DNA of 64,000 nucleotides. It comes from a virus. Below the pieces are notes generated by a model. It made no database searches and was not told the DNA's origin. It saw only the letters and a program-made list of their open reading frames with translations. Position 1 is the first letter of the stretch. Every line of letters begins with the position of its first letter. This document shows, one piece after another, positions 6,680 to 15,150 of the stretch. The translations under genes were made by a program, and so were the position numbers. The stretch covers positions 1 to 64,000 of IMG/VR virus record IMGVR_UViG_3300035661_000009, one strand, 5' to 3'.

Positions 6680-8092
6680 TTAAAACGCACCGATTAGTGA
6701 GTCAATTAGAACGTTCTTGCGTGGCTCCAGAACCGCTAAGCAGAGGAAACGGAAATGCGCTTCAGGCTGTGAAAGGTCAACTACCGCTAGTTTTAGACGG
6801 CTGTATGAAGCTAGTTCCTTTAATACCATTGTATCCTTTTCTACTAGGAATCCAGTGATACCACCGGGTAGACGGTTATTTAGGTCAAGGAATTGTACTG
6901 AAGCTCCCTTGTACGCTACACGACCTACTAACTTCGCAGTTGACGCCGCACCACCTGAGGCTGAGCGGAATACGTTGAAGAAACGTACAGTACCTGAACC
7001 AACGGCACAGGTTACTTGGATTTGCTGACCGGCAGTTAATGAAGCTGAGGTTACAGCCGCTGAAGGTGCTGATTCACCAATTTCATTTTCCGCAGTAATG
7101 TAATAAGTATAAGTCGCGCCAGCTAGGAATGAAGTTGACCCAGCTTGAGGAGTGACTGAAGAAATTGAGGGCGTACCGGGAGCGCCGTTACGAGTTCTCT
7201 TTTGCTTAGTTTGCGCTGATAGGAAGCGTGAAGCTTCTAGGGTGACAACGCCACCTGAAACTGCTTGCTTACCGATATCCGCACCAGTGGTAGGCTCAGA
7301 AGCTGAGTTACCAAGAACAATGCGTTCCTTACCGGCATAGCTGTTCTTTGAGTAAGCTGATAGAACTAGAGGATCTATATAAAGCTTATCTGCCGATCCC
7401 ATGTTCATTAGACCACGAACCCAAGCATCTTCAATCATTGACTGGGTTAGAACACCACCACCAGCTATAATAACTGAAAGGTTTGAACCAAACGCGTCAA
7501 ACATTAGGTCTTGAGTGTTGGTTTGTGAGTCTGAAATACGAACTTGCGCATCTAGACCAACCATGTTAGGCATACGGTCTGGGAACGCTAGCGGGTTACC
7601 ATCGAAAACACCCGCGTTTGAGAAGTCGCCCTTACCACGGAAAATATCAAATTCGACATCGCCAGCGATTTTCTTCGCGCCTGATTGCGCTTCACGATCT
7701 TCCGCCTTAACGCCATCTTGAGTCTCTGCCATATTAGCAGCTAGAGTTACTCGACGAATGTGGCTGTAATAAGCCATCGGAACAACCGCGCGCACGAAGT
7801 CTGAGGTCTCTTCTGACCCTACTTGACCTTCGTGTTGCGCTGAACCGCCAAAGATACCATATGATAGCTGGCGATTGAATTGTACCAATTGACCCTTAGA
7901 CTTTTCCACCTTAACTTCTTTTTGAAGTTTGATGTGCTTGTCTTGGAAGGTGACGTTGTGCATTACAGGTGAAACATCTTCTACCTGTAGGGCGCTGCCT
8001 TGCACGAGTGAACCGGGAGAACCTGCATATGAGCCCAATTCTAGTGCCTTAACTAGATCTTCAATTTTGTTTAAAAGGTTTGTACCTGACAT
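6680..8092 (-). CDS. Major capsid protein (Herelleviridae-like, with FN3-like insertion)
   Basis: N-terminal KAL..G....PGSL..GSALQVEDV, then EFDIFRG and GLDAQV; insertion PGTP...YTYYITAENEIGESAPS; lies after scaffold; strong RBS. Confidence 0.9.
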   Translation of the reverse strand: MSGTNLLNKIEDLVKALELGSYAGSPGSLVQGSALQVEDVSPVMHNVTFQDKHIKLQKEVKVEKSKGQLVQFNRQLSYGIFGGSAQHEGQVGSEETSDFVRAVVPMAYYSHIRRVTLAANMAETQDGVKAEDREAQSGAKKIAGDVEFDIFRGKGDFSNAGVFDGNPLAFPDRMPNMVGLDAQVRISDSQTNTQDLMFDAFGSNLSVIIAGGGVLTQSMIEDAWVRGLMNMGSADKLYIDPLVLSAYSKNSYAGKERIVLGNSASEPTTGADIGKQAVSGGVVTLEASRFLSAQTKQKRTRNGAPGTPSISSVTPQAGSTSFLAGATYTYYITAENEIGESAPSAAVTSASLTAGQQIQVTCAVGSGTVRFFNVFRSASGGAASTAKLVGRVAYKGASVQFLDLNNRLPGGITGFLVEKDTMVLKELASYSRLKLAVVDLSQPEAHFRFLCLAVLEPRKNVLIDSLIGAF

Positions 8093-8107
8093 ACTTTATT
8101 CTCCTGG

Positions 8108-9145
8108 TTACTTCAGTAAGTGTGAAATTTCATTTACATCTACATCGCCTGCAAGAACGTATCGATTAATTAAATCTCGGTCCGATTTCTTCAAATCATT
8201 GCTTTGGGCTACTTGATTTAACTTCTTTAATACATCTTTGCGATTCATTGATACTGGCTTAGGCTTCTCTAATTCCGACTTGGCTACGAATTGAGCCATT
8301 GAAGTAAACGCCTTTTGTTGCGGGCGAGTAATCATCGTTTCTAGTAAACCCGTTAATCCAGCTAATTGTCTTTCTAATGAAGCAACCTTTTCATCGGTTG
8401 CTTTCTTTAGCTCATCAGCCCATACTGGAGCTTCTGAAGCTTGTAATTGTTCTGGCGGACCACCGGCACCCATTTCTGGAGGCATTCCGCCTGCACCCGG
8501 AGGGCCACCGGCTGGTGAGCCTGAGGCTTCTGGAGGCATTCCGCCTGCACCCGGAGGGCCACCTGCACCTTGATCTGGTGAAGGAGCACCCGGAGCCGCT
8601 GGAGCGCCTGCTCCACCGCTCATACGTTGCATAACTACCGCTCGGAGAGCTTCATAGTGCATTTGTAATTGATCATCAGGAAGCGCAGCATAAGCTTGTT
8701 CTAGAGTTTGTTCATCCCCTTGTTGCTGTTCTGGGGATTCTTGTCCGGGAGGAGCTTCTGCACCTTCTTCGCCACCATCTGCTGGCGGGGTTTCTGATTC
8801 TCCACCACCTTCTGACGCGCCTTCTGATGCACTTTCGCCACCCATATCGGGAGAACCTTCTGGAGCCGAACCTTCTTTCTCTAATTCAAGTTGTTCTGCG
8901 TCTTTCTTAAGACCGCCCTTATTCTCATGAACAATTTGACCTTCTTTGCCCATTTTGGGAGCTTTGTCGTGTAAAATTTGTGCATGACCGGAACTAGCTT
9001 GGCCGACTTCATGGCCACTTGAGCGTTGTCCGCCTGATTCAGCTGATGGATATTGTTTTCCACCTTCTGACTTTAATAGTTCGGGAAGATCCGTTCGGAG
9101 TTCTTCAATAAGTGAGTTAATTTCGTCGTCGGTATATGATTTCAT
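8108..9145 (-). CDS. Head scaffolding protein
   Basis: Acidic, low-complexity G/P/A/E sequence with coiled coil; many L-x-K-[S/A/D] sites; directly upstream of major capsid gene. Confidence 0.7.
   Translation of the reverse strand: MKSYTDDEINSLIEELRTDLPELLKSEGGKQYPSAESGGQRSSGHEVGQASSGHAQILHDKAPKMGKEGQIVHENKGGLKKDAEQLELEKEGSAPEGSPDMGGESASEGASEGGGESETPPADGGEEGAEAPPGQESPEQQQGDEQTLEQAYAALPDDQLQMHYEALRAVVMQRMSGGAGAPAAPGAPSPDQGAGGPPGAGGMPPEASGSPAGGPPGAGGMPPEMGAGGPPEQLQASEAPVWADELKKATDEKVASLERQLAGLTGLLETMITRPQQKAFTSMAQFVAKSELEKPKPVSMNRKDVLKKLNQVAQSNDLKKSDRDLINRYVLAGDVDVNEISHLLK
8474..8563. repeat. 36-bp perfect direct repeat (GGPPGAGGMPPE x2) in scaffold gene
   Basis: Copies at 8474-8509 and 8528-8563. 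Confidence 0.9.
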
Positions 9146-9175: not shown

Positions 9176-9637
9176 TTACATGTCGCCTAGGTCTTTCCAG
9201 TATAGGTCGCTTAGAACATAAGTAGGAGTACCGGTAATATCTGATACAGTAGGGATCGCACCGTTAGCGCGTATATAAACTTCAACGCGGACATGTTGTT
9301 GAGCTAGTTCTAGGAAAACGCGGTTCTTTACAACTTCAGCTACTAGCGAAACGCCAGTTAGACCAGCGGCTTGCTCTAGAACTACTTGAGCAATATGTGG
9401 ACCATACGAGTCTTGAGCAACGCCAACTGAGTTAAACCCAATTGAAGGCATTTCAATTATACGGATTACGACGTTATTTTCGCCAGTAGCGGGGGTGCCG
9501 TCGTTTACTGAAACTACAGGAAAACCTGAAGAATCTAGTGATTCAATTACTGATAAAATCGGGGTCTCTTGCATGCGTAGAGTTAGCTTTTGTGCAAGGG
9601 TACGTGATAAAACTAGTGCTTTCTTAAGTGTGGACAT
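9176..9637 (-). CDS. Putative head structural protein
   Basis: 153 aa; AGGAG RBS; N-terminal LKKA site; first gene ahead of scaffold and capsid genes. Confidence 0.55.
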   Translation of the reverse strand: MSTLKKALVLSRTLAQKLTLRMQETPILSVIESLDSSGFPVVSVNDGTPATGENNVVIRIIEMPSIGFNSVGVAQDSYGPHIAQVVLEQAAGLTGVSLVAEVVKNRVFLELAQQHVRVEVYIRANGAIPTVSDITGTPTYVLSDLYWKDLGDM

Positions 9638-9743: not shown

Positions 9744-10157
9744 ATGGAAATGTTCAAATGTTCAAGATGTGAAGTAACTAAGTCGAGAGACAAGTTCCAT
9801 GAAGTAACTGATAAAAATAGAAATAGACCAGTTACTTCATGGTGTGCGGATTGTCGCAAGACAGCAGATAGAAGCCGAGAGCTTTTTAATTTTGCTTTTA
9901 AAAAATATGGCCAAATCTGTATTTATTGTAAATACCCCAAAAAGAACACCTATCGAGGAGTTTGTAAGAAATGTATGAAAAAGCAGGGCCTAAAAGAATG
10001 TAAACGATGCAAGACAATCCTTTTATTGGCTTTTGATTTTTGGGAAAAGAAAGGGGCTTGTAAACACTGCTTAAGAGAGCAATGGCGAGAAGAAGCTATT
10101 TTAAAGGGTGTTGGAGCTTTAAGCCGCGGGGAACAATTGTCTCAAGATAGGTCTTAG
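9744..10157 (+). CDS. Cys-rich zinc-finger protein (six CxxC), antisense to head operon
   Basis: CSRC, CADC, CIYC, CKKC, CKRC, CKHC; no recognisable HNH catalytic motif. Confidence 0.65.
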   Translation: MEMFKCSRCEVTKSRDKFHEVTDKNRNRPVTSWCADCRKTADRSRELFNFAFKKYGQICIYCKYPKKNTYRGVCKKCMKKQGLKECKRCKTILLLAFDFWEKKGACKHCLREQWREEAILKGVGALSRGEQLSQDRS

Positions 10158-10794
10158 ATTTTTCTAATGGTCGCCAATCATCTGGCGGAGCTTCGTGCAA
10201 CTTAGATACATGAATAAACGGCTCTTTGCCTAAATCAAAATGCTTAACCCTTTGGCTGTTTATCATTCCACCAAGAATATCCTTTGCTTCTTGCAATGCT
10301 TGTTCTGCTTGTCCCGGAGAATAGCCAATGCCTACAGAAACGGTGAATTTATGGTTGGTTCCAGACAATACTTCTGTTTCATCTAGCTTTTGTTCTAATT
10401 CTTTAGTAAATCCAAGGGCTTCTTGTGGAGATTTAAATATAATTCTGCTTTTATCCCCACTAACTCTAAAGGCATGAACCTTATATTTCTTAGATAATTC
10501 TAGTATTGAATTAAACATTAGCGAAACGCCTTCATCTCCCATTAATTGGCCATGGGTGTCGCTTAATGCTCCGACCGAATTACCATCAATAGTTACGTGA
10601 ACGCCTGAATTTTTATTAAAAGCCACGAATTTCTTGTAAGAAAATAGATTCCCAAAGTCTGGAAACTGACTATCCTTTTCGATATGATCAGGAAACTCAG
10701 GCTCGGCTGGTTTTTCATAGATAGGCAAGGAAGGATCCATCTTTTGAAGATTTTCCATTCCCTTAAGTAGTTCGAAGTAGTCTTCATTAAACAT
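10096..10794 (-). CDS. GGDEF-fold protein with degenerate active site (SGDKS)
   Basis: Colinear GGDEF landmarks: KD......GN, TIDGN, LSDTHGQLMGD, FRVSGDKS, TVSVGIG, AEQALQEAK. Confidence 0.8.
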   Translation of the reverse strand: MFNEDYFELLKGMENLQKMDPSLPIYEKPAEPEFPDHIEKDSQFPDFGNLFSYKKFVAFNKNSGVHVTIDGNSVGALSDTHGQLMGDEGVSLMFNSILELSKKYKVHAFRVSGDKSRIIFKSPQEALGFTKELEQKLDETEVLSGTNHKFTVSVGIGYSPGQAEQALQEAKDILGGMINSQRVKHFDLGKEPFIHVSKLHEAPPDDWRPLEKSKTYLETIVPRGLKLQHPLK

Positions 10795-11240
10795 TAGAAC
10801 TTCTCCATTTTATACTTGCCTAGTTGTACTTGTGCAAATAGCTCTTTTAATTCGTCTTTAGAAATTTGCTTCCCACCAAATATGGTGTTTATTCCGTATA
10901 TTTCAAGTATTTTAGGCTGATCTATCCCATTCCACACAAAATACTTGGCGTCTGGGTCTACATCGCCAAGACTCATTTCAGGAATAACGTCGTCGTGAGC
11001 CCCTTCATTGGCTTGTTTATCAGAAATGACTTTAAAATACGGTGTGTGGCAAAGATGGAATATCTTTTTTGATATTTCTGGAGTTATTGGACCTTCTATT
11101 ACATCTTCCATCAAATTATCGTGATCTTCTAATATGTAGAATTTACCGTTTTTAATAAAAAACTTAGACACTTGTCTTTCTACGGGTTTGCCGTATCCTG
11201 ATTTAATGCTATAGACTCTATAAATTCCGTCTTTTAACAT
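10794..11240 (-). CDS. Hypothetical protein between protease-kinase and GGDEF genes
   Basis: 148 aa; AGGAG RBS; TAATG coupling to the GGDEF gene. Confidence 0.7.
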   Translation of the reverse strand: MLKDGIYRVYSIKSGYGKPVERQVSKFFIKNGKFYILEDHDNLMEDVIEGPITPEISKKIFHLCHTPYFKVISDKQANEGAHDDVIPEMSLGDVDPDAKYFVWNGIDQPKILEIYGINTIFGGKQISKDELKELFAQVQLGKYKMEKF

Positions 11241-11248
11241 TTAGACTC

Positions 11249-13246
11249 CTAGACCCCGTAGTTCTTATGTGCCGACAAGATATCGCCCATACTGTTCTGA
11301 CCCAATACTGAGGTAGATTGCATTGCTAGTAGTCTTTTAACTGCCTTTTCTACTAATGTCGGGTGGATCTTGCTTTCTTCTAGTTGGCGCTTTAATTCAA
11401 ATGGATCTAAACCTACTAGCCATTTCTTAGCTTCAGGGTGAATGTTTTTTTCATAAATATTTTTACCCTTAATTCTTGCATAATCTTCCAAATATGATGG
11501 AATCTCGTCCTTGTTGTAGTCAAAGGTAAGTGCGTTATCAATAAGCATTACTTTGTTATTACGTTTATCAATCATGTAGTTAGTTTTGTTTCTATCTCTG
11601 TTGCCTAGAACCGTGTCCATAATGGCCATTTTATCTAATTGACCGGTAACCCCTTCTTTATGCAATATTGGACGAGTAGCCGCTGAAGGAGAATCTGGGT
11701 GAAAATGAACCGCTTCAGGCAAGACTTCCATTGCTGAATGTTCTTTGCCACCTTCTGGGTGAGAAAAGAGGGTTGTCGTAGGAACGTTGTCTATACCGAA
11801 AAATCCCTTTGATAAGTTATGGAATATAACCTCTCTTGCTGCCGTCGAAGGTTTTATTTCTTTATCTGGCTCATCCTCATAATCTACGCTTGGCTTTACG
11901 TGGGCAGTTTTGCCGCTGGCTGACTTGTACCAACCATAAGCTGCGTCTTTGTCTTTAATATGCCAAGTGGAAGTTCTTGGATGATCTACAGATTCTTGTT
12001 TAATGTCAATTCCGTGAATTAAATCTTTTTGTTCATGCGTCTTTGTGTGATCAAGACTTGAATGTTTACCACCATCTACATATAAAGCTTCATGAACCTC
12101 TTCTGGCATCTTTATAATAGCGAAGTGACTGCCTTCTTGTTTTCTATTGATCTTATTTATATTGACTTCACTCTGATCGCCTGCTTTGGGTGGTTTTACG
12201 TGAACGTGAGTGTCGTCAACATGAAGCAATTTAAGCTTACTTCCCTTAAATGGCCCGCCAATTAGCTCGATTTCTCCGGGCTTAACCATTTTATCTTTAT
12301 ATTTGATAGCACCTTTTTCTGCTTTTGGCAAATCCGATAATCCATCTTCCTCACTCTTGCGAAATTGGATTTCATTAACCATATCTGAATATTTATCCAA
12401 ATACTTGTCGGCAACATCTGGTAATGAATGTTTAAGAAACTTCTTAAGATAAGGCTTGAACGGCATTTTACCATCATAATCTCTAGCCGCAGCTAGTAAT
12501 TGATTTTTAAAGAACTTCTTTTTTCCAATTACATCTTCTACGGCTAAAGCAGAGCCGCCAGTTAATGAACCGGGAGCGGCATCGCCGCCGCCGAGAGTTA
12601 ACGTCTTTTCTAGAGCTACATCTACCATTTCATATTCCATCTCACTAATGGCAATATATTTTTCGCTCTTTTGAACATCGACCCCAACTTGCTTAACCTT
12701 AGGTTCTGAAACTAGGTTACTAAAACTGCTACGATTACAAGGCTTGATAGTTGCAGCTACTCGACGAGCAATAGTCTTTAATAGATAGTTGCCGTTTCTA
12801 TCAATGGTGCTTCCTTCAATACTGTATCTAATAACAATTGGCAAGCCACGACGATGATAATGTTTAATCATAGCGGCGGCGTCTTTTGCGTTACTATGCC
12901 CTTCTTTGTCAAATAATTCAGAAGCTCCGTAGATAAATGGGAGTTTAATTTCATTCCAAAGCTTAAGCTCTCTCTCAGATTCACAATCTTCTTCGCCAAA
13001 TATTTTCTTAGCGAAGATAATTCTTCCTATGATTACAGAGAAGGTGGCTGATTCTTTTTTGTCTGGATTATTGTGCTCTGTATTCAAAATGCCATCTTCA
13101 TTTAATGATGATATATCAGCGCCCTTAACGCTGATAATTTCTCCTGAAGTATCAATGGCTTCTGTAGCAAAAGCACCATCTATAACGGTGCCATGATCTG
13201 GATAGCGAAGCGCTTCCTCTATTTTAGGATGGAATTTGACTAACAT
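11249..13246 (-). CDS. Prohead protease fused to KOW-like domain and C-terminal HipA/PI4K-like kinase
   Basis: N-terminal DTSGE, LNTEH (His), YSIEG (Ser), VAATIKPCN, directly after portal; middle IGGPFKG; C-terminal HVKP, AAREV, VPTT, MDTVLGNRDRNKTNY, LIDNALTF. Confidence 0.85.
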   Translation of the reverse strand: MLVKFHPKIEEALRYPDHGTVIDGAFATEAIDTSGEIISVKGADISSLNEDGILNTEHNNPDKKESATFSVIIGRIIFAKKIFGEEDCESERELKLWNEIKLPFIYGASELFDKEGHSNAKDAAAMIKHYHRRGLPIVIRYSIEGSTIDRNGNYLLKTIARRVAATIKPCNRSSFSNLVSEPKVKQVGVDVQKSEKYIAISEMEYEMVDVALEKTLTLGGGDAAPGSLTGGSALAVEDVIGKKKFFKNQLLAAARDYDGKMPFKPYLKKFLKHSLPDVADKYLDKYSDMVNEIQFRKSEEDGLSDLPKAEKGAIKYKDKMVKPGEIELIGGPFKGSKLKLLHVDDTHVHVKPPKAGDQSEVNINKINRKQEGSHFAIIKMPEEVHEALYVDGGKHSSLDHTKTHEQKDLIHGIDIKQESVDHPRTSTWHIKDKDAAYGWYKSASGKTAHVKPSVDYEDEPDKEIKPSTAAREVIFHNLSKGFFGIDNVPTTTLFSHPEGGKEHSAMEVLPEAVHFHPDSPSAATRPILHKEGVTGQLDKMAIMDTVLGNRDRNKTNYMIDKRNNKVMLIDNALTFDYNKDEIPSYLEDYARIKGKNIYEKNIHPEAKKWLVGLDPFELKRQLEESKIHPTLVEKAVKRLLAMQSTSVLGQNSMGDILSAHKNYGV

Positions 13247-15150
13247 TATCGACCCTTAATTAGTTTTAATGCCTTTTCAATAGAAGCTCTTTCACCTTTG
13301 CTTAACTCTGATCGGGTAAGTAGGCTTTCTAATTGATTAACTCCGGTCATTAATTCATTACCTTGAGAATTAGCTTGTTGTGTTTTTTGTTGCTCTTGTT
13401 GCTGAAGCTGTTGTTGTTGTTGCATTTGTTGCTCAGCCATCTTCTTTTGTTCTTCTTGTTGTTGTCGAGCTTCAATTAACTGCTTTTGAGTAAACCAGAA
13501 TTGATCTCGACGATAGCCATTCATTGGGTCTTTTTTAGCTTCTTTGTCGTCAAAGAAATATTCTTTAATTTCTCCAACAGTAAAATAATTGTCAAGAATC
13601 TTCTGGAACATTTCGTTAAATGGAAATTCGCCGCCCATTTTACGACCGACTTTGGGCTTTTCTACCTTTTCAAGTATTTCGTCCATCGTGCCCCAGATAG
13701 GAGCCCACTCTTGAATAGCGGTTCTTTCTTTTTCAGGAGAATCGGTTTCTAATCCGTGGAATCTAACAGTACAATATTCGGCTAATTCTTTATCTATTAA
13801 TGGAAGAATCTTAGTTGAAAGGAAGTCTTGTAAGTGTGAAAGCAATGGACGGATGCCTACGTCTCTATGCGCTTCAAGCTTGTATTCATTATTTGATTCT
13901 GATAAAGTCTGGGTGTTAGTACCCTTTGACAAATGTGAATAAGCAGGAACTTCGTCTGGCGACATTTGGAACGCAGCTAAGACTACACGACAATTACTAT
14001 CATATAGGTATTGGAATTCCATATCTCTTGAAGCTCCATCCATGGGAGCCCAAGTTACCTTATCTTCTTTACCTACTTTAATTACTGGAGTTTTCCACGA
14101 ATTGCTTACGCTGTTAATAGCCGCATTGAATTGCTGCTTAAGATCTGCTAAGGTGCTAGGGTCTACCTCATCTGAGCTAATAACCATCATGCCCTTCGCT
14201 GCACGTCCGTTTTGGAAATAAAGCTTATTGTGGTTAGTTATATTAATATGGGTAGTTATTGCAGCGAATGCAACATCGATTGGCGTAATTGGATACCCAT
14301 TATTTTCAATATCGGTCGATGGATAGCAGTTCCTTACTATTAACTCATCGGCCTCAAATCCTTGGGCTGGTGTTCCGTTAATTACTTGAAAGAATTTATA
14401 ATCATCAGCTTTGAACTTCTTAGGGTCAAGCTTGAGATTTTTCTGTTCAGAAATTACCCTAATCGCTTCTTTTCTAATGTTCGCATCTATACTGTCGGTA
14501 GGAACTGCGCGATAAACAGTGCCAGCGTCAACTGGCCTAAAAGCATAAAAACCGTTTTTATTGCCCTGGGTGTCTCGTTTGTGAATAACTTCGGTGGCGA
14601 ACCTTCCAAATAATAAGGCGTTTCGAGCGGTTAGATACAAGAAGGTTGATAAGCTCATCATGTCGTCTTCGTCTGTATCTTCTGTATGGCCACAGGTCAA
14701 AAGGATTTCTTGAGCCTTGTCCATTCTGATTCGAAGCTCTTTTGCTTTTTCTTTATCTAAATGCTTGAATTTATGTGGCTTAGGATCTACTCTAAATCCC
14801 CACTCAAAACGATCTTCCAATATTTGACCGAATACAGCACTTTGGTTTGCACGAATATGTAAAATGTTGGCGATCAAATCATCCGTCACTGAAACGCGCT
14901 TTAACAAAATATCGGGTAATTGACCTACTTTGTCATAGAAAATACCCATAAAGCGATTTACGCTCTTTGGATCCTCTTCTAAAGCTAGTCGTTGGATTTT
15001 GTTAGATTTAGTGATACTTGTTAATATGCTCTTAATTAGCGGAGTTACGTTAGGTAACTCGATGTTTTCGCCATCTTCATATTTAGCAAGCACATCTGGT
15101 GTGATTTGATTATCGAGAGCTTCGAATTCAAATCGGGGCTTTTTGGACAT
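13246..15150 (-). CDS. Portal protein
   Basis: RPVDAGTV, GYPITPID, YFQNG..AKG, NSWKTP, DMEF, AAFQMSPDEV, GIRPLL; position between terminase and protease; poly-Q C-terminal tail. Confidence 0.9.
   Translation of the reverse strand: MSKKPRFEFEALDNQITPDVLAKYEDGENIELPNVTPLIKSILTSITKSNKIQRLALEEDPKSVNRFMGIFYDKVGQLPDILLKRVSVTDDLIANILHIRANQSAVFGQILEDRFEWGFRVDPKPHKFKHLDKEKAKELRIRMDKAQEILLTCGHTEDTDEDDMMSLSTFLYLTARNALLFGRFATEVIHKRDTQGNKNGFYAFRPVDAGTVYRAVPTDSIDANIRKEAIRVISEQKNLKLDPKKFKADDYKFFQVINGTPAQGFEADELIVRNCYPSTDIENNGYPITPIDVAFAAITTHINITNHNKLYFQNGRAAKGMMVISSDEVDPSTLADLKQQFNAAINSVSNSWKTPVIKVGKEDKVTWAPMDGASRDMEFQYLYDSNCRVVLAAFQMSPDEVPAYSHLSKGTNTQTLSESNNEYKLEAHRDVGIRPLLSHLQDFLSTKILPLIDKELAEYCTVRFHGLETDSPEKERTAIQEWAPIWGTMDEILEKVEKPKVGRKMGGEFPFNEMFQKILDNYFTVGEIKEYFFDDKEAKKDPMNGYRRDQFWFTQKQLIEARQQQEEQKKMAEQQMQQQQQLQQQEQQKTQQANSQGNELMTGVNQLESLLTRSELSKGERASIEKALKLIKGR

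Follow-up and report, generated by a model that had tools for sequence, protein, structure and literature searches.

The GGDEF gene and its head-gene cassette

The stretch of DNA analysed here, referred to as the window, comprises 64,000 nucleotides (positions 1 to 64,000 of the IMG/VR virus record IMGVR_UViG_3300035661_000009), and the record it comes from is a 160-kb virus genome estimated to be 99% complete. The gene under study lies within a cassette of head morphogenesis genes (Table 1) and codes for a protein with a GGDEF fold whose active site is degenerate. The cassette follows the order portal, protease protein, ORF148-like protein, GGDEF protein, ORF153-like protein, scaffold, and capsid, which is common to Myxococcus phage Mx1 and to the metagenomic loci L003, L005, L006, L008, L009, and L012. 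An earlier interpretation made from the letters alone (the sequence-only reading) had described a phage-encoded GGDEF-fold protein with an altered active site; its open reading frame (ORF) proved to be real and the fold was recovered in the prediction. The decisive context, namely the conserved head-morphogenesis cassette and a dedicated partner domain, had been overlooked.

Table 1. Positions of the GGDEF gene, its motifs, and the surrounding head genes in the window
Feature	Coordinates	Strand	Evidence
GGDEF-fold protein with degenerate active site, 232 amino acids (P0001)	10096..10794	-	ORF; AlphaFold2 (AF2) model; structure alignment; family profile against PDB
GGDEF-fold core, residues 33-203	10186..10698	-	Model span aligned to DgcB, PleD, WspR, and DgcR
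D70, retained metal-binding Asp (PleD D327)	10585..10587	-	Asp in 116/122 family members
S78, replacing the guanine-binding Asn (PleD N335)	10561..10563	-	Asn in 119/122; Ser only in the window protein and its 63% relative
Degenerate signature S112-G-D-K-S116, compared with GG[D/E]EF (PleD G368-G-E-E-F372)	10447..10461	-	Alignment; exact GGDEF in 73/122
Conserved C-terminal tail G-L-K-L-x-[N/H]-P-L-K	10099..10125	-	Family alignment; extra cargo domains beyond the tail in long relatives
L16-Q-K18 of the L-x-K-x-[D/E]-P motif before the GGDEF domain; candidate maturation cleavage site	10741..10749	-	Lys in 83/101 filled rows
ORF148, partner domain, coupled to the GGDEF gene through TAATG	10794..11240	-	Homologous fusions in relatives; complex model
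ORF148 motif L37-E-D-H40, near-invariant at L37 and D39; predicted contact with the hairpin at the GGDEF active site	11121..11132	-	Alignment; interface list
665-amino-acid protein: head-maturation protease domain, capsid N-arm mimic, kinase-like domain	11249..13246	-	phrog_1028, invariant residues, Atlas structures, Pfam
Copy of the capsid N-terminal arm, after L-E-K	12530..12613	-	BLASTP against capsid arm 7973-8056 (-): 17/28 identical, E 2e-7
Conserved 153-amino-acid head-module protein (ORF153)	9176..9637	-	Homologues in the same place at five related loci
Scaffold-like protein	8108..9145	-	Position and homologues in relatives
Major capsid protein	6680..8092	-	phrog_752 at 1.2e-43; 55% identical to Mx1 capsid protein
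Portal protein	13246..15150	-	phrog_12 and others
Large terminase, 954 amino acids	16180..19044	-	Terminase matches split: residues 287-353 and 738-910

Taken alone, the window protein matches the Pfam GGDEF family (PF00990) with an E value of 1.2e-4 and 22.3 bits, below the cut-off of 23.8, and TIGR00254 with an E value of 5e-4, while its best sequence match in the PDB is the T. maritima diguanylate cyclase 4urg (E 0.025). A word-index search for homologues returned a single relative, and the family was therefore collected by an exhaustive profile search, which recovered 251 representative clusters at E ≤ 1e-3 and 94 at E ≤ 1e-10. Relatives found at E values from 1e-20 to 1e-55 exceed the Pfam cut-off at 37-56 bits, and the profile of 122 family domains matches solved diguanylate cyclases in the PDB at an E value of 1.6e-15, so that sequence homology to the PF00990 superfamily is established through the family profile and the relatives. 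The fold was found as well: the AF2 model, built on the 122-sequence alignment, reached a predicted local distance difference test (pLDDT) score of 90.3 and a predicted template modelling (TM) score of 0.80, and Foldseek returned 97 PDB matches at E ≤ 1e-3, with GGDEF domains throughout among the matches listed. Structural alignment with VIA-align gave Z scores of 15-17 against GGDEF folds overall, including DgcB (6tts; Z 17.2, root mean square deviation (rmsd) 2.5 Å over 148 residues) and PleD (2wb4; Z 16.2, rmsd 2.0 Å over 144 residues). There is very little doubt, on these results, that the window protein has a true GGDEF fold and is homologous to GGDEF domains. An identity as mCpol (PF18182) was rejected, as the match of 20.8 bits (E 5e-4) falls short of the 26.4-bit cut-off, the gene is surrounded by head genes, and the relatives fit GGDEF far better.

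The placement of the gene, with the head-maturation protease on one side and the scaffold and capsid genes on the other, was found in the window, in Mx1, and at the six metagenomic loci, whose capsid proteins match at E values from 1e-57 to 1e-175. The window capsid protein shares 21-28% identity with those of SPO1- and Twort-like phages. Among cultured phages, megablast with the 10 kb around the GGDEF gene gave no match, and tblastn with either the window protein or a protease-GGDEF fusion returned Mx1 as the sole match. An ORF148-like partner, fused or encoded immediately upstream, was also found, and the assignment of the window protein to an Mx1-like family of head-module GGDEF proteins is close to certain. 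Neither a second GGDEF gene nor an EAL gene was found in the 160-kb genome.

Several further observations concern the neighbourhood. A Cys-rich ORF of 137 amino acids with six CxxC pairs, at 9744-10157 on the forward strand, is convergent with the GGDEF gene, sharing 62 nucleotides with its 3' end; in the nearest relative, L012, the corresponding frames (8638-8994 and 8001-8699) show an identical 62-nucleotide convergent overlap, so both the Cys-rich and the GGDEF frames are probably real. The scaffold-like protein has a long low-complexity middle part rich in Gly, Pro, and Ala, and its C-terminus reads H-L-L-K, where the scaffolds of relatives end in H-L-L followed by one variable residue; this end faintly resembles the H-P-L-K end of the GGDEF protein. 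Intein_splicing matches were obtained in the terminase-position genes of relatives, at L009 and faintly at L012, and the large-terminase gene of the window may carry an intein.

Active site and degenerate clade

Residues were placed by alignment to 4urg and to the family profile, with family counts taken over 122 domains; the matched positions of PleD (D327, N335, D344, R366, G368-F372, and K442) follow the numbering of that protein. The metal-binding acidic pair (PleD D327 and E370) is kept as D70 and D114, as the sequence-only reading had proposed. Its placement of both motifs at 10447-10467 required correction, since this interval holds R-V-S-G-D-K-S only, including the S-G-D triplet, whereas T-I-D sits at 10585-10593 on the reverse strand. 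The change of GGDEF to S112-G-D-K-S116 and that of the guanine-binding Asn to Ser, both recognised earlier, were confirmed by the alignment, in which S78-D79 occupies the place of the N-D pair of GGDEF domains. At the fourth position of the signature, Glu is present in 105 of the 122 family members and K115 in the window protein. Two features of active diguanylate cyclases are consequently missing, namely this Glu and the Asn of the guanine-recognising Asn and Asp, of which the Asp is retained (D87, equivalent to PleD D344). Also present are R110, the Arg preceding the signature (PleD R366; Arg in 116/122), and K171, the phosphate-binding Lys (PleD K442; Lys in 120/122). A direct reading of residues 96-111 revealed no RxxD I-site, in agreement with the earlier statement; the motif that marks I-site receptors of cyclic dimeric guanosine monophosphate (c-di-GMP), five residues before the signature, is thus absent from the window protein and is found in 3 of the 122 domains family-wide. 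Judged by these residues, the family is built like working cyclases, and the window protein is an exception.

The exception is not confined to a single sequence. A maximum-likelihood tree of the family was built after removal of the motif columns, with support given by the Shimodaira-Hasegawa-like approximate likelihood ratio test (SH-aLRT). The window protein falls within a clade of 15 rows (SH-aLRT 99) in which the final Phe of the signature is lost in every row, and within it a nested clade of 10 rows (SH-aLRT 97) contains nine members without the catalytic residues, whose signatures all differ from one another (SGDKS, SGDKA, GGDKG, AGDLG, KGDLA, RGDEA with Asn at the D70 position, AGAQA, AGARC, and SGNRG). 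Outside the 15-row clade, 98 of the 107 sequences are canonical under a lenient rule, and the Mx1 homologue is itself canonical, with F-R-N-G-G-D-E-F and I-N-K. Comparison of the window gene with that of L012, a relative of 63% identity, gave proportions of nonsynonymous and synonymous differences (pN and pS) of 0.24 and 0.74, the latter saturated, and the ratio of nonsynonymous to synonymous rates (dN/dS) is about 0.1 or less and similar across the N-terminus, the core, and the C-terminal tail. From this sequence comparison, the gene is not decaying and is under strong purifying selection.

The variable, non-conserved signatures point to relaxed selection on catalysis, as an enzyme with a re-specified activity would instead be expected to show a new conserved motif. 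Since the motif is lost and variable within the clade and the gene is nonetheless under purifying selection, a pseudoenzyme fits better than a re-specified cyclase, and it is highly likely that the window protein has lost diguanylate cyclase activity.

Partner domain, protease protein, and candidate processing sites

The start codon of the GGDEF gene overlaps the stop codon of ORF148 as TAATG, an arrangement typical of translational coupling from ORF148 to the GGDEF gene. ORF148 showed no match in Pfam, PHROG, NCBIfam, or the PDB, and its matches to Atlas features were uninformative. In a model of the complex, ORF148 and the GGDEF protein reached an ipSAE of 0.68, compared with 0.00 for the best of three controls. 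Among solved complexes, 58 of 80 attained this value, as did 2 of 110 mismatched pairs; these counts apply only approximately, since our own alignments were used. At least 69% of the contacts agree between runs, and the pLDDT of the partner is at least 76. The confident contacts join residues 35-42 of ORF148, which include the LEDH motif, to GGDEF residues 37-38, 41-43, 49-51, 83, 110, and 112-113. These GGDEF residues represent the conserved entry hairpin together with the beginning of the signature loop. The model thus makes it likely that ORF148 binds the window GGDEF protein across its active-site face.

Synthesis of c-di-GMP requires two GGDEF active sites facing each other. A partner docked at the active-site face would for this reason act as a cap, and the model suggests a zymogen-like control of the active family members by their ORF148-like domains. 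The sequence-only reading had noted the lack of a sensor domain; this holds for the GGDEF ORF itself and is misleading for the system, because the domain fused upstream in relatives, the predicted cap, is encoded here by the adjoining gene at 10794-11240. The ORF148-like domain belongs to no known family and is of interest as a possible regulator that caps a GGDEF active site.

The 665-amino-acid protein encoded next to ORF148 carries the features of a head-maturation protease. Ten of its 18 homologues match phrog_1028 ("head maturation protease"), at best with an E value of 1.1e-9, and the window copy does so at 0.006. The alignment of the protease proteins contains an invariant His (N-x-E-H, H58) and an invariant Ser (S-[I/V]-E-G, S142), and the Atlas model aligns to Peptidase_S78 and S77 with TM scores of 0.41-0.50, which serve as a lead only. 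The protein also contains a PI3_PI4_kinase match (11504-11647; 31.3 bits, cut-off 27.1), together with a weak SCO1664/Fam20C-like match, and this kinase-like domain looks like a second cargo enzyme of a protease-GGDEF polyprotein system. Downstream of the protease domain lies the 28-residue copy of the capsid N-terminal arm, which is kept in 17 of the 18 protease homologues. An L-x-K motif stands ahead of the arm at equal spacing in the protease and capsid proteins, and an L-x-K-A arm is also present in the capsid proteins of Mx1 and of four related metagenomic loci. The arm copy may serve as a capsid-docking mimic together with a cleavage site.

A related motif, L-x-K-x-[D/E]-P, precedes the GGDEF domain in both the split and the fused forms, and in the fused forms it lies within the linker after the ORF148-like domain. 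The L-x-K motifs are considered candidate maturation cleavage sites, at which the head-maturation protease would cut.

In a single-sequence phmmer search, the ORF148-like domain was fused directly upstream of GGDEF in 62 of the 151 matches, including proteins of 1200-1700 amino acids, and the first ~300 residues of the protease protein were fused N-terminally in about 20 matches. One relative of 704 amino acids combines the protease, the ORF148-like domain, and GGDEF in a single chain, and another of 1535 amino acids fills the whole interval from the portal to the scaffold and capsid genes. By comparison with these relatives, the three genes of the window represent a split version of one polyprotein. 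In three relatives (P0028, P0013, and P0014, from loci L006 and L005), the chain continues beyond the N-P-L-K motif with ART-PolyVal, Phage_T4_Y00F, or DUF3293 domains, so that this motif marks a module boundary in longer cargo proteins, and the C-terminal ART-PolyVal and DUF3293 fusions fit a virion-delivered cargo. Relative P0115 carries a PI3/PI4-kinase-like domain after GGDEF, in the way that one follows the protease in the window.

Proposed role, alternatives, and known systems

The explanation we favour, with moderate confidence, is that the window protein is a non-catalytic GGDEF pseudoenzyme of the Mx1-like head module that is probably loaded into the phage head. The protease, the ORF148-like domain, and GGDEF are encoded as one polyprotein or, in the window, as three tightly coupled genes. 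According to this proposal, the GGDEF/ORF148 unit would enter the prohead together with the protease protein, which bears the capsid-arm copy, would then be trimmed at the conserved L-x-K sites, and would leave the capsid with the DNA, in the manner of Alt in T4 and of the ejection proteins in giant phages. In the window phage and its close relatives, the chemistry of the synthase would have been lost while the fold, the contact with ORF148, and several nucleotide-contacting residues were retained, and the remaining role would be a non-catalytic one, such as incorporation into the head, partner binding, and possibly binding of guanosine triphosphate (GTP) or a cyclic dinucleotide. The loading step itself, to which the protease fusions, the capsid-arm mimic, and the ART-PolyVal fusions point indirectly, is judged slightly better than an even chance.

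Several points weigh against this explanation. Regarding the delivery, fusion to or adjacency with a protease does not by itself prove packaging, and no paper was found on the Mx1 genome. The N-terminal domain of the protease has no match in Pfam, and single-sequence and profile searches of PDB sequences were likewise negative. The L-x-K motif is short and its contexts differ, being L-x-K-[A/T] in the capsid and protease proteins and L-x-K-x-[D/E]-P in the GGDEF proteins, and a literature search found no published cleavage specificity, a Lys-specific motif included, for related head proteases. Regarding the loss of catalysis, the retention of D70, D87, R110, D114, and K171 under strong purifying selection is equally expected of an enzyme with altered chemistry, and S78 and K115 are common to the two closest sequences.

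A more far-reaching version of the proposal is tentative and, in our judgement, rather doubtful: a GGDEF module, loaded into the capsid within the maturation-protease polyprotein, capped by ORF148, and freed at L-x-K as the head matures, would be injected with the DNA and act on the cyclic-nucleotide signalling or immunity of the host within the first seconds of infection, with the members of the window clade serving as an injected sponge or decoy. If this were true, second-messenger enzymes carried in the virion would let phages influence the c-di-GMP physiology of the host (motility, surface structures, and biofilm), or its cyclic-nucleotide defences, ahead of any phage gene expression.

Alternative roles were weighed against the same evidence. 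The protein could be a cytoplasmic, unpackaged decoy or sponge for GTP, c-di-GMP, or another cyclic oligonucleotide, aimed at the signalling of the host or at cyclic-nucleotide defences. Binding of GTP or c-di-GMP by degenerate GGDEF domains is established (PdeA, PelD, FimX, and GdpP), phage sponges against cyclic-nucleotide defences are known, the phosphate- and base-contacting residues are partly kept here, and D70, D87, R110, D114, and K171 are retained. However, the usual c-di-GMP site, the RxxD I-site, is missing, the predicted contact with ORF148 covers the active-site face, and the gene is coupled to the protease within a late operon of head genes and does not group with early or anti-defence genes; the absence of an EAL gene and of a second GGDEF gene from the genome also speaks against a sponge, which we regard as unlikely.

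A purely structural function is likewise considered unlikely. Under this alternative, the protein would be an accessory of the head core or scaffold, its GGDEF fold having been recruited as a building block for the inside of the prohead, to be degraded or left behind, with no role for nucleotides. This would account for the central place of the gene in the head module throughout the lineage, for the conserved C-terminal tail, and for catalytic residues that are dispensable in the clade while the fold is conserved. It agrees poorly with the complete catalytic set kept by most of the family (exact GGDEF in 73/122), which argues that the chemistry matters family-wide, and with cargo-type fusions such as ART-PolyVal, which indicate effector delivery.

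The window protein could also be an active nucleotidyl cyclase or transferase whose SGDKS signature and S78 retune the substrate or the product, for instance towards a non-GTP substrate or a linear product, and a cyclase of altered specificity was among the proposals of the sequence-only reading. The retained metal positions (D70 and D114), the presence of D87, R110, and K171, the strong purifying selection, and the sharing of SGDK and S78 with the 63% relative are all compatible with such an enzyme. Nevertheless, Lys stands in for the Glu at position 4, a residue that catalysis requires according to established GGDEF biochemistry, and the signatures differ from member to member within the same clade, some of them without the Asp (AGAQA, AGARC, SGNRG, and SGGEL). 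The Asp to Ser change at the D87 position that defines Hypr enzymes is absent, too. This alternative is accordingly disfavoured and appears quite improbable. The more specific identity as a Hypr GGDEF, a cyclic GMP-AMP synthase, was rejected, as D87 is kept and is not Ser or Thr, and the signature is not intact. Finally, the suggestion that the protein forms dead heterodimers with host diguanylate cyclases as a dominant-negative partner found no support and is most improbable: GGDEF catalysis does require two facing domains and the protein lacks its own catalytic Glu, but cyclases normally dimerise through N-terminal domains that are absent here, and the predicted contact with ORF148, a protein of the phage itself, already takes up the active-site face.

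The lineage offers a natural series, from active-looking cyclases fused to the protease, through split versions, to a clade without the chemistry that is still under selection, and this series separates the catalytic from the non-catalytic role. From computational work, GGDEF genes were already known in phages, as were GGDEF domains in polyvalent proteins. A literature search found no paper on protease-GGDEF fusions, on a lineage-wide link between GGDEF and the head-maturation protease, on the partner domain, or on the degenerate clade; new here are the clade of degenerate pseudoenzymes, the selection analysis, and the predicted docking of ORF148 on the active-site face.

Among known systems, parallels to the proposed delivery are found in other phages. 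Alt and the internal proteins of T4 are directed into the prohead, where its protease trims them, and leave the capsid along with the DNA (PMC5512222), and in SPN3US and phiKZ-like giant phages, ejection proteins are processed by the protease and ejected with the DNA (PMC10052503, PMC7411985). The delivery mode proposed for the window unit is alike, with no sequence relationship to these proteins; its packaging is a proposal, and the putative cleavage after L-x-K is unlike the T4 and phiKZ motifs. GGDEF domains also occur in polyvalent proteins predicted to be injected with the DNA, for which T4 Alt is the prototype (Iyer et al. 2017, PMC5512222). The Mx1-like family resembles these in the combination of GGDEF with unrelated enzymatic domains (ART-PolyVal and kinase-like) and in its late or packaging gene contexts. 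It differs in that the carrier is a head-maturation protease instead of a MuF or zincin peptidase and in the lineage-wide link with an ORF148-like partner, and in the window three separate genes encode the unit, with a degenerate GGDEF domain.

With regard to cellular proteins, PleD, WspR, DgcB, and DgcR share the fold of the window protein (Z 16-17, rmsd 2.0-2.5 Å over ~145 residues), and canonical cyclases share its metal-binding Asp, guanine-binding Asp, pre-signature Arg, and phosphate-binding Lys. In contrast to them, the window protein has SGDKS, with Lys for Glu, and Ser for Asn, lacks an I-site and any receiver, PAS, or GAF domain, and is encoded in a phage head operon, paired with a domain of no known family. 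Degenerate GGDEF domains, such as those of Caulobacter PdeA, PelD, FimX, and GdpP, have kept the fold after the loss of cyclase activity as nucleotide-binding or regulatory modules, and the GGDEF domain of FimX is among the structural matches of the window model (Z 15.5). These proteins are cellular, and most of them use an I-site or carry a fused EAL or DHH domain, features that the window protein lacks. The mCpol protein of the Panoptes defence (PF18182) is, like the window protein, a small palm-domain cyclase in its architecture, whereas the window gene stands in a phage head operon with no CARF or transmembrane effector as a neighbour.

The nearest known system is that of Myxococcus phage Mx1 (OR576727), the only cultured relative, whose "nucleotide cyclase" WNM70324 is 32% identical to the window protein over 98% of its length. 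The order of its genes is that of the window, with the portal, the "putative prohead protease" WNM70322, WNM70323 (150 amino acids), WNM70324, two small proteins, and the capsid, and its cyclase likewise bears the N-terminal L-x-K-x-D-P and C-terminal N-P-L-K motifs. The two differ in the active site, where Mx1 has N-G-G-D-E-F and I-N-K and the window protein has S-G-D-K-S and Ser, and in the length of the protease protein, which comprises 1239 amino acids in Mx1 and 665 in the window. As Mx1 is in culture, the predictions made here for the window and its lineage are directly testable in that phage.

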